Below, piece by piece: positions 39,386-59,507 of a DNA stretch of 64,000 nucleotides (position 1 is its first letter; each line of letters starts with the position of its first letter). The notes below the pieces were generated by a model that was not told the DNA's origin, searched no databases, and saw only the letters and a program-made list of their open reading frames with translations. The position numbers and the translations under genes were made by a program. The DNA is from Escherichia coli (lineage in GTDB: Bacteria > Pseudomonadota > Gammaproteobacteria > Enterobacterales > Enterobacteriaceae), in NCBI RefSeq assembly GCF_003019035.1, contig NZ_CP027447.1, one strand, 5' to 3'.

Positions 39386-39686
39386 ATTTCGCACACCTCC
39401 GCGCTCAGGCCAGCAGCCGCTGACTTAAGCTCGCACATCAGTAAATCACCTGCTTTTTCAAATTCCAATCAAAATTGAACCCGTTCATCAGGATTGTGGA
39501 TAAATTTCCCTCTACATTATTTTCATTTCATCACATAGAAAATCTTATCTCATTGAAACAATACTTGTTTTTAATGCAGAAAACGAAGCCCAACGGATGG
39601 GCATAAAAATGAGCGAATTTTGATATCACCACCCTCTAAAAAATGGTGAAGTCTGAACAAAGAATGTTCGAAAGGAGAGAGTAGAG

Positions 39687-40184
39687 ATGGAAAGCACAAA
39701 TCTGGATTTAGAAGAAAATAAAGAAATTGCCAGTAAGTTCGAACGTGCATTAGGTATGGGAGCAACGCTTGCAGAGCTGCATGGCATAACCCCGGATACC
39801 CTTGAAGGCGTTTATGCTTACGCTTATAACTTTTATGAAAAAGGAAGACTTGACGAAGCTGAACTCTTTTTTAAATTTCTCTGTATTTATGATTTCCAAA
39901 ATTATAACTATCTAAAAGGATATGCCGCCGTCTGTCAATTGAAGAAAGATTATCAAAAGGCATTCGACATGTATCATATCTGTTTAATGCTATCTCCCGA
40001 TAACGATTTCTCTTTGGTTTATTATATGGGTCAATGCCAGATGGGCTTAAAAAACATTAAAATGGCCACTGAGTTATTTAATACTGTCGTAACCTATAGT
40101 CAAAATGAAAAAATTAAAGAGATGGCTACTGCTTATCTTGAACTTTTGACAGCCAATACCGAAGAGGAAGTTCAAACAGAGTGA
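39687..40184 (+). CDS. eicA: type III secretion class II (translocator) chaperone, SicA/IpgC/LcrH family
   Basis: 165-aa TPR-type chaperone (GITPDTLEGVYAYAYNFYEKGRLDEAELFFKFLCIYDFQNYNYLKGYAA...); strong ribosome-binding site; AT-rich, non-core context. Confidence 0.8.
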   Translation: MESTNLDLEENKEIASKFERALGMGATLAELHGITPDTLEGVYAYAYNFYEKGRLDEAELFFKFLCIYDFQNYNYLKGYAAVCQLKKDYQKAFDMYHICLMLSPDNDFSLVYYMGQCQMGLKNIKMATELFNTVVTYSQNEKIKEMATAYLELLTANTEEEVQTE

Positions 40185-58700: not shown

Positions 58701-59306
58701 GCTGAAATCTTCATCCACACCAAGAGATACCCGGGCAGTTCCCCAACGACTGAGCCAGTCCGTTGCCTGCGCAGAGGCAGAAGAAGCCACCCAGCCACGC
58801 GCCATACTCGCAGCCTGTTCGCTGTCCATATCGCGAGCTAAAAGTGTTCCGCTTTGCTGCGCCATTTCCGCGACCTGCATTTGCGGATCTTTGCCGTCGC
58901 GCTCCATCTGCATTGCTTTCAGGTTGCGCGCTTCAGGGCTATTACTGTTAATGAGGGGCACATCTATTTCATCGCCCTGACGCACATTGTCAAAGCCCCG
59001 CGCAAAGGTACGGAACTGATTCAGGCGACGTAATTCATCAACGGTGATACCAAAGCGTGCCGCGACCGTTGGTGGCGATTCCAACGCACCCAGGGTATAT
59101 GGAATAGTTTTAACGTTCGGCAGGATCAGTGACGCGGCAGTATCCGAGTGCGCAGGATTAATATGCGTAGGGGCAGCAGCCATAACAGGGAATATAGTTT
59201 GTGTTATCAGGCAAATACCGGCGGTCAGACGACGTAAACGATCCCCCAATCCACATATGGTGTTATCGCCCCGACGATCGCCATTCCCATGCGCTTTCCC
59301 TGCCAT
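46722..59306 (-). CDS. air: giant inverse-autotransporter adhesin (intimin/invasin family) with LysM, beta-barrel and multiple bacterial Ig-like domains
   Basis: Uninterrupted 4194-codon ORF; N-terminal LysM-like segment and intimin/invasin-type beta-domain, then diverse Ig-like modules, 24 tandem 97-aa repeats and a roughly 200-aa Cys-containing C-terminal domain. Confidence 0.85.
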   Translation of the reverse strand: MAGKAHGNGDRRGDNTICGLGDRLRRLTAGICLITQTIFPVMAAAPTHINPAHSDTAASLILPNVKTIPYTLGALESPPTVAARFGITVDELRRLNQFRTFARGFDNVRQGDEIDVPLINSNSPEARNLKAMQMERDGKDPQMQVAEMAQQSGTLLARDMDSEQAASMARGWVASSASAQATDWLSRWGTARVSLGVDEDFSLKSSSFEFLHPWYETPDNLVFSQHTLHRTDDRTQTNHGIGWRYFTSSWMSGVNMFIDHDLTRYHTRTGMGVEYWRDYLKLSGNGYLRLSNWRSAPELDNDYEARPANGWDLRAEGWLPAWPQLGGKLVYEQYYGDEVALFGKDERQNDPHAITAGLSYTPVPLISFSAEQRQGKQGENDTRIGMELTLQPGHSLQKQLDPAEVAARRSLVGSRYDLVDRNNNIVLEYRKKELVRLTLTDPLKGKPGEVKSLVSSLQTKYALKGYDIEAASLQSAGGKVAVSGKDIQVTIPPYRFTAMPETDNTYPIAVTAEDSKGNFSRREESMVVVEKPTLSLTDSTLSVDQQILLADGKSTSMLTYTARDSSGKPIPGMTLKTQVKGLQDFALSEWKDNGNGTYTQIVTAGKTSGALSLMPQFNGDDIAKTPALIAIVANTASRADSTIETDQDNYVAGKPIAVKVTLRDDNGNGVTGRKELLKQTVKVDNTKADAVSAWTEESEGIYKASYTAHLIGDKLTAQLTMPGWQTKHSDAFSIAGDKDTAKIVAMQITANNAVARRDHNTVAVTVRDVHQNLLQGQNVTFTVVNGAAVFADPNGGIVTTDKDGIARVNLASDQAVNSLIKAEINGSSQSVEVSFITGDISQLTSTIKTDDVSYTAGGKIKVSVTLMDEQKNLVKGMASLLAGSSVVEVSGTDKNETGNCSEESDGVYTTTRTAKIAGDRHYATLKLSTWSSAQQSDAYAIRESGAVLAYSSIVTDKTAYTAGGAIKVTVTLKDSYENLVGGQRDAISLAIQLPNTKAESIAWNEDQKGIYTATYTALLPGTGLKAQLQMSGWANALTSNDYSISGDAASAQIVAMQVTTGNPDVLANGSDRHTVNVRVEDQFGNVLPEQTVTFTVTKGAAVFANAGQSADIRTDAHGMAEVDLSSTVADASTVEAKINQSSDSKTVNFVADVSTAQIADLVVTQDGSVADGATANTLRARVTDVFGNALAGQTVSVLAGNGATTAPTVTTQPDGTVEISVTSQTAGTSVITASVNNSSQSRNVTFIADVSTAQIADLVVSQDNAVADGATANTLQVRVTDAFGNALAGQTVSVLADNGATVAPVVTTQPDGTVEISVTSQTAGSSAVTVSINSSSQSRDVTFIADVRTAQIADLVVIKDDSVADGAMANMLRARVTDVFGNALAGQTVSVLAGNGATTAPTVTTQPDGTVEISVTSQTAGVSAVTATINSSTQSQNVTFIADVRTAQIADLVVIKDGSEADGATANTLRARVTDAFGNALAGQTVSVSADNGATTAPTVITEPDGTLEISVTSQTAGTSAVTASINNSSQSRNVTFIADVRTAQIAELVVIKDGSAADGVMANMLRARVTDAFGNALAGQTVSVLAGNGATTAPTVTTQPDGTLEISVTSQTAGISAVTATINNSTASQNVMFIADVRTAKIADLVVIKDDSVADGSTANTLQVKVTDANGNALAGQTVSVLAGNGATTAPTVTTQPDGTVEISVTSQTAGISAVTASINNSSQSRNVTFIADVSTAQIASLEVTQDNAVADGAMANTLLVRVTDAFGNTLAGQTVSVLADTGATVAPTVITGLDGTVEISVTSQTAGTSAVTASINSSTASRNVTFVADVRTAKIADLVVIKDGSVADGAMANTLRVKITDAFGNTLAGQTVSVLADNGATVAPTVITGQDGTVEISVTSQTAGTSTVTASINNSSQSRNVTFIADVRTAQIADLVVTRDNSVADGAMANTLRVRVTDAFGNVLAGQTVSVLADNGATVAPTVTTQPDGTVEISVTSQTAGISAVTASINNSSQSRNVTFVADVRTAQIADLVVIKDDSVADGSTANTLRARVTDAFGNALAGQTVSVLAGNGATTAPTVTTQPDGTVEISVTSQTAGISAVTASINSSSQSQNVTFVADVRTAKIADLVVIKDGSEADGSTANTLRARVTDAFGNALAGQTVSVLADNGATTAPTVITEPDGTVDISVTSQTAGISTVTATINSSSQSQNVTFIADIRTAQIASLEVTQDNAVADGAMANTLQVKITDAFGNTLGGQTVSVLADNGATVAPVVTTQPDGTVEISVTSQTAGVSAVTATINSSTQSQNVTFIADVRTAKIADLVVIKDGSEADGSTANTLRARVTDAFGNALGGQTVSVMADNGATTAPTVITEPDGTVEISVTSRTAGISAVTATINNSSLSRNVTFVADVRTAKIADLVVTQDGSVADGSTANTLRARVTDAFGNALGGQTVSVMADNGATTAPTVITEPDGTVEISVTSRTAGISTVTATINSSSLSRNVTFVADVRTAQIADLVVIKDGSEADGATANTLRARVTDAFGNALAGQTVSVMADNGATTAPTVITEPDGTVEISVTSRTAGISTVTATINSSSQSQNVTFIADIRTAQIASLEVTQDNSVADGTMANTLRVKITDAFGNTLGGQTVSVLADNGATTAPTVTTQPDDTVEISVTSQTAGTSAVTASINSSTASRNVTFVADVRTAKIADLVVIKDGSEADGATANTLRARVTDAFGNALAGQTVSVSAGNSATVAPAVITEPDGTVDISVTSQTAGISTVTATINNHSLSQSVMFIADVRTAQIADLVVIKDGSEADGATANTLRARVTDAFGNALAGQTVSVSAGNSATTAPTVITEPDGTVEISVTSRTAGISTVTATINSSSQSQNVTFIADIRTAQIADLVVIKDGSEADGSTANTLRARVTDAFGNALAGQMVSVLAGNGATTAPTVTTQPDGTVEISVTSQTAGTSAVTASINNSSQSRNVTFIADVSTAQIASLEVTQDNAVADGATANTLRARVTDAFGNALAGQTVSVMAGNSATVAPAVITEPDGTVEISVTSQTAGISTVTATINNHSLSQSVMFIADVRTAQIADLVVIKDGSEADGATANTLRARVTDAFGNALAGQTVSVLADNGATTAPTVITEPDGTVEISVTSQTAGTSAVTASINNSSQSRNVTFIADVSTAQIADLVVTQDGSVADGSTANMLRVRVTDAFGNTLAGQTVSVLADNGATVAPTVITEPDGTVEISVTSQTAGISTVTATINNSTLSQNVTFIADVSTAKIADLVVIKDGSAADGATANTLQARVTDAFGNALAGQTVSVLAGNGATVAPTVTTQPDGTVEISVTSQTAGVSAVTATINNSSQSRNVTFIADVRTAQIADLVVTRDNSVADGSTANTLQVKVTDANGNTLAGQTVSVLAGNSATVASTVTTKPDGTVEISVTSQTAGTSTVTASINNSSQSQYVTFVPGDASQLTSTVETNKSNYTVGETITITVTLRDAFDNLVTGAASQLAADGVLTVAGTDPSETGSWVESGGVYTTTRMATIASTNQHANLQLQTWSDGVTSDRYDIQSGSPAQATSTIATDKNAYTAGDTITVAVTLKDAHGNLVEGGESLLSGDNVTVEGAVRSGGWSETAGVYTATWSAQMAGDSHHATLKLSEWGSSKQSESYSIHSGAPVQANSAIRTDKLAYIAGEPLTVTITLRDEFGNPALGLTSEVIESYIDNFAVGGATPDSMQWVEQNNGEYTIVWTAWVAEENLVASLKLKTWATEIKSSLYGIQPGAAAKTQSTIVADKTIYIAGDSITVTVVLKDAQGNFITDGVVQLNEENVQVRNADSIQGNNWIYNGNGQYQRQYMAHFAEANLNAQLKMAGWSDANYSNNYTIKPGEVSPLGSQLRIREVLVVEGADLPVSVLLVDDFGNPVDNGLDLLDDAVYLQNVEKKEGEKWRYVGDGIYERTYMAYQEGENLTSFMEIKGWRIYGQPSYTILPFVEVELLSVNGVKFRATDGFPETGFDGAKFTLLLTHNMKNTDYNWTAGIYGINVDSNGEVTLSVLIRSEVTITGKPKNGKGNDVVFKFKIKKWFTSLGATSSNTWDIINTSCSYGQMPSSLELAQRPSGGVVPRKVGTLWGEYGNLKTYGNAFSGTDYWTSTQLMGVHEKFNPETGISELGTGKSSGLCVEYY
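48880..55875 (-). repeat. tandem array of 24 near-identical 291-bp (97-codon) Ig-like-domain repeats inside air
   Basis: Protein units of the form NVTFIADVRTAQIADLVVIKDGSEADGATANTLRARVTDAFGNALAGQTVSV...ISVTSQTAGxSxVTAxINxSSQSx recur 24 times in register; the opposite strand shows short 60-aa ORFs at 291-bp multiples. Boundaries are approximate to within 20 bp. Confidence 0.9.
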
Positions 59307-59507
59307 TTGTCATCCCTGTCGCTATGCGTTCAGATTAAATGACCTTTCTTTAACATGAGGGAAAATGATGATTCATGATTAGCAAATGATGAATACAGGC
59401 GGAATAATGGAAATAACAACAAGATAAGAACAATACCTGATCAAGGGTTATCAGGGGGAAGAACAGGAGAGCTTTCCCGCCAGAGCAATAACCCTCCTGT
59501 AAATACG

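Follow-up and report, generated by a model that had tools for sequence, protein, structure and literature searches.

The compositional contrast within the eip/selC-B island of Escherichia coli coincides with a tandem repeat array inside the adhesin gene air

The eip locus of Escherichia coli places genes for a type III secretion translocon and its regulator beside the gene for a large surface adhesin. Ren in 2004 and Sheikh in 2006 are also said to have described this locus. It was described and named eip/selC-B in enteroaggregative E. coli 042 and in sequence type 69 (ST69) (Fox 2020, PMC7058095), and the number of Big repeats in the adhesin is known to differ between strains (PMC7058095). 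The adhesin names Air, EaeX and IatC refer to one gene, whose chromosomal position has been stated to be conserved (PMC6714894). The regulator EilA complements hilA (PMC4210603), and the presumed partner secretion apparatus is ETT2 (the second type III secretion system of E. coli), which is encoded elsewhere in the genome (PMC7058095). Base composition is not mentioned in this literature on eip/selC-B and IatC (PMC7058095, PMC6714894, PMC4210603). Here we consider a 64,000 nt stretch of E. coli DNA (contig NZ_CP027447.1, assembly GCF_003019035.1; hereafter the window) that carries the island. An original prediction, made from the letters of this stretch, had noted AT-rich translocon genes next to GC-rich adhesin repeats and had proposed that two halves of different origin were joined at a terminator between eilA and air. 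Our analysis leads us to consider it probable that the GC-richness instead belongs to a homogenised, recombining tandem array within one known island, and not to a different donor.

The window is E. coli chromosome, with positions 39400-47400 being 100% identical to the chromosome of E. coli SCU-301, and the locus within it is the known eip/selC-B island; the island, its genes and the variation in repeat number have already been described. Alignment with K-12, the SCU-301 annotation and the published description (PMC7058095) place the island at 39384-59507 (20.1 kb; 20,124 bp). Homology to K-12 stops at 39383 and restarts at 59508, and in that strain the counterpart of the island is only the 48 bp spacer between yicS and nepI. 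The gene set comprises eicA, eipB, eipC, eipD and eilA together with the convergent eaeX/air, EipC being recognized by position only, and Air is confirmed in its place adjoining eilA, between yicS and nepI. About 14% of complete E. coli genomes carry the island.

To locate the compositional boundaries, maximum-likelihood change-point segmentation was run on positions 35001-64000, alongside a 300 bp GC profile. The segments obtained were 35001-39436 (GC 0.460), 39437-47916 (GC 0.377), 47917-48911 (GC 0.516), 48912-55843 (GC 0.620) and 55844-64000 (GC 0.497). The contrast between AT-rich genes and GC-rich air repeats is thus borne out and is large, at 37.7% GC in the second of these segments versus 62.0% in the fourth. 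A hairpin does exist between the convergent genes, at 46680-46709, but the compositional junction assigned to it does not. The flanking windows have GC values of 0.33-0.43 and show no step, and the AT-rich composition crosses the terminator for 1.2 kb at GC 0.38-0.41. The AT-rich segment, 39437-47916, takes in the genes from eicA through eilA, then the terminator, and the last 1.2 kb of air at its 3′ end. The true compositional boundary lies inside air, at approximately 47.9-48.9 kb, and the GC-rich block is an internal tandem array rather than the air gene as a whole.

The air gene (46722-59306, minus strand) is an intact open reading frame (ORF) of 12,585 bp, identified with NCBIfam and Pfam models, that encodes an inverse autotransporter adhesin of 4194 amino acids (aa). 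Its N-terminal 1065 aa score 3099.7 on NCBIfam NF040978 (Ve_IatC_Nterm), against a cut-off of 2400 and with model positions 1-1065 fully covered. The protein has the type Ve architecture of an IAT_beta domain (aa 148-423), a stalk of immunoglobulin (Ig)-like domains and an invasin-like tip; Pfam recognizes 27 Big_1 and 31 Invasin_D3 stretches, and Invasin_D4 at aa 4009-4075. The gene begins with an N-terminal third at 55845-59306, which encodes the signal/LysM region, the beta-barrel and seven single-copy Ig domains (GC 0.52; GC at third codon positions, GC3, 0.544). This is followed at 48861-55844 by a tandem array of 24 in-register units of 291 bp, each encoding a 97-aa Big_1 unit (Air aa 1155-3482), then by a transition zone of three single-copy Invasin_D3-type domains at 47917-48860 (GC 0.52, GC3 0.47-0.54), and finally at 46722-47916 by the C-terminal tip, the last ~400 aa, with its Invasin_D4/lectin-like end (GC3 0.30-0.39), all on the minus strand. 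Tandem Repeats Finder reports the array as 24.0 copies of 291 bp at 48876-55853, with 85% matches and zero indels. In-register units are 80-97% identical to one another, and their identity does not decay with distance along the array. Other air alleles in complete genomes carry 11, 19 or 25 copies.

Silent-site composition follows this anatomy closely. GC3 is 0.544 over aa 1-1154, 0.763 over aa 1155-3476 and 0.407 over aa 3477-4194, falling domain by domain in the last of these regions (0.54, 0.51, 0.47, 0.39, 0.33 and 0.30), and the array ends match the two positions at which GC3 changes, 48879 and 55844. Array GC3 is 0.757-0.764 in alleles of 11, 19, 24 and 25 units, again with a change-point at the array end. 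The GC content of each of the three codon positions in the 5′ third of air matches what core codon usage predicts.

As a reference we used 23 ORFs outside the island, with a mean GC of 0.516 (standard deviation, sd, 0.035) and a mean GC3 of 0.558 (sd 0.062; range 0.39-0.65, maximum 0.649). The array (GC 0.62, GC3 0.763) stands about +3.3 sd from this mean GC3, and the genes of the eip/eilA block fall between -2.7 and -5 sd. If the array is counted as a single 97-codon unit, its GC3 of 0.76 compares with an amino-acid expectation of 0.58, a difference of about 3.6 sd. Under core codon usage, the amino acids encoded would give a GC of 0.563 in the array, where 0.620 is observed, and of 0.454 in the eip genes, where 0.379 is observed; approximately 45% of the contrast is attributable to amino-acid composition and 55% to synonymous codon choice. 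Amino-acid composition was therefore rejected as the whole cause, since it explains only this ~45% and since GC at fourfold degenerate sites (GC4) is 0.77 in the array versus 0.57 in the remainder of air.

Several observations on air alleles belong beside this description. In NZ_CP051751, the closest RefSeq assembly, the only differences from the window fall in the array (7 mismatches and 13 indels, at ~50379-55850), and its annotation breaks iatC into three fragments or calls it a pseudogene, although the window has an intact ORF; these differences are probably assembly errors in the repeats. Long ORFs occur antisense to the array on the plus strand within 48850-56192, for example at 52981-54420 (479 aa) and 49480-50637 (385 aa). 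They are not likely to be genes; they represent stop-free frames of the GC-rich repeat.

Under the original prediction, an AT-rich translocon/regulator island and a GC-rich adhesin gene arose separately and were fused tail to tail at 46681-46708. This model can draw on the significant difference in GC between the eip/eilA block and whole air (0.38 versus 0.564), on the presence of a hairpin between the two convergent genes, and on the E. coli-like composition of the air 5′ third, which the eip genes do not share. The lack of any compositional step at the terminator, with AT-rich sequence running unbroken from 39437 to 47916, argues against such a join, as does the distribution of the island. 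Across 5426 complete E. coli genomes, eip/eilA is present in 747, the 5′ part of air in 754 and the 3′ part in 743, always at one locus, and the allele classes match (168 versus 167 genomes at identities of at least 99%). The sole genome seen to have air without eip, E. coli PCP07014, results from a secondary IS26/Tn3/integron replacement. The IS26/TnAs3/class-1 integron region of this strain (dfrA7, qacEdelta1, sul1-type folP, TEM-1) displaced yicS to eilA and truncated the tip of air as well.

Comparison with Escherichia albertii bears on the same question. Its island occupies the same yicS locus and has been degraded by IS66 and by deletions; in CP117643.1 (5434-15400), IS66 lies within eilA, air is divided between two ORFs and nepI is missing. 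The two species share 72-79% nucleotide identity in eicA, eilA and the 5′ part of air and 61% in the region of the air tip, with lower values in eipB, eipC and eipD (the EipB and EipC proteins are 27% identical), compared with 90% in the core gene adeQ. Where residues are conserved, the same codon has been kept in a fraction of 0.42-0.61 for eip/eilA, 0.53-0.57 for air and 0.70 for adeQ. Because both halves are about equally diverged from E. albertii, and more deeply than the core, they appear to be one unit with one history. On the best reading this is a single accessory island rather than a fusion of two. A join of two origins at the terminator is contradicted by where the boundary lies, by the confinement of GC-rich sequence to the internal array, by the co-occurrence of the parts and by their about equal divergence, and we regard it as very improbable.

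E. albertii also bears on what high GC3 accompanies. The air gene of this species lacks the E. coli repeat unit and has its own array of 3.4 copies of 309 bp, 97% identical and of Invasin_D3 type, with a GC3 of 0.77 (0.75-0.78). The best E. coli match to the E. albertii unit is a single-copy domain at Air aa 3592-3686, which is 54% identical at the amino-acid level and has a GC3 of 0.49. Among the identical residues of this pair, 19 codons end in G or C (S) in E. albertii and in A or T (W) in E. coli, and 7 show the reverse. Other orthologous single-copy domains have matched GC3 values in the two species (0.50 and 0.48, 0.33 and 0.40, 0.30 and 0.32). Since the E. albertii array is raised in GC3 and its single-copy counterpart and neighbours are normal, high GC3 follows tandem status, not ancestry. 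In both species, GC3 is raised specifically in the homogenised part of the gene, irrespective of the ancestry of the domain concerned.

We then examined inverse autotransporters more broadly, using a first set of relatives picked by similarity to the unit and a second set picked by beta-barrel similarity from species-representative genomes. In seven of the related genes for which DNA was available in the first set, the arrays are richer in both GC3 and GC4 than the remainder of the gene. The second set comprised 77 loci from about 25 genera, among which 10 genes have arrays. Here GC3 in the array exceeds that in the non-repeat passenger by 0.105, with 9 of the 10 genes (p = 0.014) and 7 of 7 genera positive. 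Conversely, the passengers of 41 array-free inverse autotransporters differ from their flanking genes by -0.012, which is not significant. In a test that pooled both sets, each array was set against only the single-copy stalk domains within its own gene, leaving out barrel and tip; the GC3 difference is positive in 16 of 17 genes, with a mean of +0.112 (Wilcoxon p = 0.0003), and the largest shifts include those of Air (+0.24) and E. albertii air (+0.29). Amino-acid context of Ig domains was rejected as the cause, as neither single-copy Ig domains of the same genes nor the 41 array-free genes are enriched. That tandem Ig arrays recurrently show raised GC3 is a modest generalisation, and possibly a new one.

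A different source for the array might be import, in which a GC-rich Ig unit or array, taken from an inverse autotransporter gene in some GC-richer bacterium, recombined into an originally AT-rich air gene and was then amplified, so that its GC-richness would be the donor's. A GC3 of 0.76 does resemble that of genomes with ~57-60% GC, no domain of air is an obvious parent of the unit, and passengers of this family are modular, with tips and stalks that differ sharply in composition within single genes. However, no donor was found: a two-unit query against 1.84 billion protein representatives returned an Air allele as its top match, and no non-Air match closer than ~50-56% amino-acid identity. 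The limits of the GC-rich zone are also precisely those of the array in E. coli, and the like holds separately in E. albertii, whose amplified domain corresponds to a resident single-copy domain with normal GC3. Independent imports would also be required in Xenorhabdus, Providencia, Pantoea, Izhakiella and others. In addition, AGG makes up 49% of arginine codons in the array, which is atypical of GC-rich Enterobacterales, although there are only 3 arginine positions per unit. We consider import unlikely. A common mobile GC-rich repeat cassette was rejected, because array units of different genes share only 30-58% amino-acid identity and almost no DNA similarity; since these units are unrelated beyond their fold, the shift is convergent and does not reflect a travelling cassette.

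GC-biased gene conversion occurs in concertedly evolving multigene families of eukaryotes, and its existence in bacteria is still debated. We infer that it is the likely cause of the GC-richness of the array. In this proposal, unequal crossing-over and gene conversion between units would produce heteroduplexes, whose mismatches would tend to be repaired toward G or C. The codons used in the array are as follows: lysine is encoded by AAG at 27 of 27 positions, glutamate by GAG at 87%, and arginine by AGG or CGG at 96%. Because these codons end in G or C contrary to the preference of E. coli, translational selection is argued against, and translational optimisation was rejected on the ground that AAG, GAG, AGG, CGG and ACG are all non-preferred in this species. 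Chi sites were likewise considered as a driver of recombination in the array and rejected, as it contains only one GCTGGTGG.

Variation among 79 units of air arrays provides a further view of the process. Rare variants comprise 46 S-to-W and 8 W-to-S changes, compared with 18 and 13, respectively, in the class at 10-30% frequency (Fisher p = 0.008). Such a frequency spectrum is only suggestive of biased conversion. Amelioration of imported GC-rich DNA would likewise give a strong S-to-W excess (46:8) among rare variants, and selection accounts for the rise of W-to-S variants with frequency no less well than biased conversion does.

Selection on composition would hold that high silent-site GC is favoured specifically in long repeat arrays, an explanation to which we give little weight, slightly less than to import. 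The benefits conceivable under it are that 7 kb would be kept free of H-NS filaments, intragenic promoters and Rho-dependent termination, or that mRNA or DNA would be stabilized against slippage. The directional shift in 16 of 17 genes and the situation of the array in an otherwise AT-rich, H-NS-type island would both agree with such selection. On the other hand, no such protection extends to the last 2 kb of this long ORF, its AT-rich 3′ end, array-free inverse autotransporters of 2300-2600 aa show no passenger enrichment, and the codons chosen are poor for translation in E. coli.

Biased conversion in a homogenised array of a single island remains the interpretation we prefer, and the following results count against it. 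The 5′ third of air is E. coli-like and the eip genes have a GC3 of ~0.33, a disparity that one common origin followed by amelioration does not explain. No single-copy parent of the unit is evident in air, the adjacent Big_1 domain being only 21% identical to it. In the second set of inverse autotransporters the GC4 excess is weaker (+0.08, with 6 of 10 positive), one Bartonella array has a negative GC3 shift, and across arrays the GC3 excess shows no clear scaling with unit identity or copy number. The W-to-S share of unit variants rises from 15% in the rare class to 42% in the 10-30% class, and mis-polarised high-frequency S-to-W changes alone would predict ~0.28 (p ~ 0.07). Finally, the published difference that recombination makes to the GC3 of E. 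coli core genes is slight, at 58.0 versus 56.3 (Lassalle 2015, PMC4450053), so that an effect of 20 points would need far more intense conversion. We put forward only tentatively the general proposition that tandem Ig arrays of bacterial surface adhesins are driven by biased conversion, in the course of concerted evolution, to high silent-site GC, by 20-30 GC3 points and whatever the GC content of the host.

The AT-rich tip of air has its own counterpart in the family. Across inverse autotransporters, the tip is richer in AT than the passenger is (tip minus passenger -0.060; 37 of 48 negative; p = 3e-8), and when the C-terminal 200 codons are taken, the GC3 of the beta-barrel is the higher of the two in 20 of 23 genera, the gap reaching 0.38 in Pseudomonas guariconensis and Pantoea stewartii. 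The AT-rich tip is a family trait of inverse autotransporters that is strong here. It is also the most strain-variable part of Air: the 90-95% identity class holds 118 genomes for the tip and only 12 for the 5′ part. When used as a search query, the tip returned matches only in Escherichia, at 72-99% for E. coli alleles and ~51% for E. albertii. At the other end of the protein, an air beta-domain 99% identical to that in the window occurs on a 4 kb contig (JAIJJM010000277.1) of a metagenome-assembled genome binned as actinobacterial and labelled 'Collinsella sp.', a bin that E. coli DNA has almost certainly contaminated; a 79%-identical beta-domain lies on another short contig of this kind, whose context is uninformative.

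The AT-rich segment, in turn, has the composition of DNA to which H-NS binds. Over 8.5 kb its GC is 0.377, approximately 14 points below the reference of 0.516, and low-GC DNA, such as that of 37.7% GC, is of the kind bound by this protein. It is reasonable to view the translocon/regulator block and the 3′ tip of air as having the low GC typical of horizontally acquired, H-NS-type DNA, and silencing of the AT-rich part by H-NS is plausible as judged from base composition. H-NS represses the related ETT2 regulator gene ygeH in strain 042 (PMC4210603); that study tests ygeH and ETT2 only and holds no H-NS data for eip or eilA. The main text and available supplements of an hns/hns2 transcriptome paper (PMC5861252) make no mention of eilA, eip or EC042_4007-4013. 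The prediction that follows is H-NS binding over eicA to eilA, over the air tip and probably over the air promoter, and not over the 7 kb array.

Annotation and family scans agree that the genes originally called from the chaperone to eilA, and air itself, are correct. On the plus strand, eicA (39687-40184) encodes a chaperone of the SicA/LcrH class for type III secretion system (T3SS) translocators (TIGR02552 score 113.2, cut-off 104.8; SicA model E = 2e-44). It is followed by a 60-aa ORF at 40194-40376, annotated as a hypothetical protein in RefSeq genomes, for which Pfam and NCBIfam scans gave zero family matches. The eipB gene (40432-42213) encodes a SipB/YopB-like translocon subunit (Pfam T3SSipB score 41, cut-off 31; RefSeq YopB/SseC family), and eipC (42226-43377) occupies the position of sipC, an assignment by position only, as it has zero Pfam or NCBIfam matches. 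The product of eipD (43421-44770) is a SipD/IpaD-like needle-tip protein (Pfam T3SS_TC score 120, cut-off 25) that scores 137.8 on NCBIfam SipD_IpaD, under the cut-off of 219. Last comes eilA (44973-46670), for a HilA-family regulator that scores 952 on the HilA/EilA model NF009037 (cut-off 589). GC and GC3 are 0.359 and 0.33 for the chaperone gene, 0.410 and 0.36 for eipB, 0.345 and 0.25 for eipC, 0.404 and 0.39 for eipD, and 0.353 and 0.31 for eilA, the GC3 of eipC being the minimum of the island. Between the eilA and air stop codons, the hairpin at 46680-46709 has a 13 bp stem (-25.8 kcal/mol, z -5.98) and is probably a bidirectional terminator, as its predicted fold suggests.

The island is not a classical tRNA-integrated pathogenicity island with integrase, flanking direct repeats and insertion at a tRNA gene. 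An integrase gene was neither annotated nor seen in the 20 kb, although no search was made for direct repeats at its ends; setC, yicL, nlpA and yicS separate it from selC, at a distance of 5 kb. A rhuM fragment directly 3′ of tRNA-Sec, next to selC in the 35460-35590 region (NZ_CP051751 13887-14015), is a remnant of a former selC-integrated element at the site called selC-A in the literature (PMC7058095). Elsewhere in the window, a RelE/ParE toxin and helix-turn-helix antitoxin pair at 60787-61625 is inserted, relative to K-12, between nepI and yicN, and its toxin is annotated as frameshifted in SCU-301. A cluster at 23800-31000, between yicH and yicI, carries genes of phosphotransferase system (PTS)-fructose type together with aldolase, ROK and lyxose-isomerase genes, and looks like a second accessory insertion; its BglG-family antiterminator gene (ORF 29262-30815) is AT-rich (GC 0.415, GC3 0.39). 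The window also contains seven Chi octamers (GCTGGTGG), compared with 1.8 expected, at 1188, 7193, 7909, 12064, 25615, 54656 and 62487. All are on the minus strand, which fits a single replication orientation across the window.

These results have consequences for how such loci are read. The GC jump of 24 points is the footprint of a repeat array within one gene and not the scar of a fusion between acquisitions. Because the jump corresponds to a repeat array of a single gene, compositional island callers and arguments for mosaic origin should mask tandem arrays. Two family-wide rules are hinted at for inverse autotransporters, namely GC3-enriched arrays and AT-rich tips. If biased conversion is indeed the cause, such arrays would offer a simple natural system in which to quantify the bias in bacteria; intragenic arrays would be self-contained reporters of conversion bias, and a recurrent source of false calls of foreign DNA.

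Compared with known systems, the locus shares with eip/selC-B of strain 042 and ST69 the gene order eicA, eipB, eipC/X, eipD, eilA, eaeX/air and the site three backbone genes from selC, and differs in its air allele of 24 units and 4194 aa. As in Salmonella pathogenicity island 1 (sicA-sipBCD/hilA), there is a homologous set of chaperone, translocon, tip and regulator genes with low GC, but here there is no secretion apparatus, EipB and EipD fall under the NCBIfam equivalog cut-offs, and EipC matches no family. The likeness to the H-NS-silenced ETT2/ygeH region of 042 lies in low GC over kilobases. Air has the beta-barrel, Ig stalk and invasin-D4/lectin-like tip of IatC (Goh 2019, PMC6714894) and passes the IatC model. 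The range given there is 2459-2965 aa, and a compared EaeX/Air allele has 2933 aa, so that the present allele of 4194 aa is longer, and unusually long; that study reported no evidence for variation in repeat number, whereas alleles of 11, 19, 24 and 25 copies occur here. A stalk of tandem near-identical Ig domains is also a feature of YrIlm and YrInv of Yersinia ruckeri (cited in PMC6714894), although Air is not a YrIlm member, its N-terminus scoring 414 on the YrIlm N-terminal model against a cut-off of 750. Lastly, GC-biased gene conversion as described in bacteria (PMC4450053) shares with the air array a higher GC3 where recombination is frequent and an AT bias among rare variants; the effect there is ~2 points, compared with one of 20-25 points here, restricted to an intragenic tandem array.

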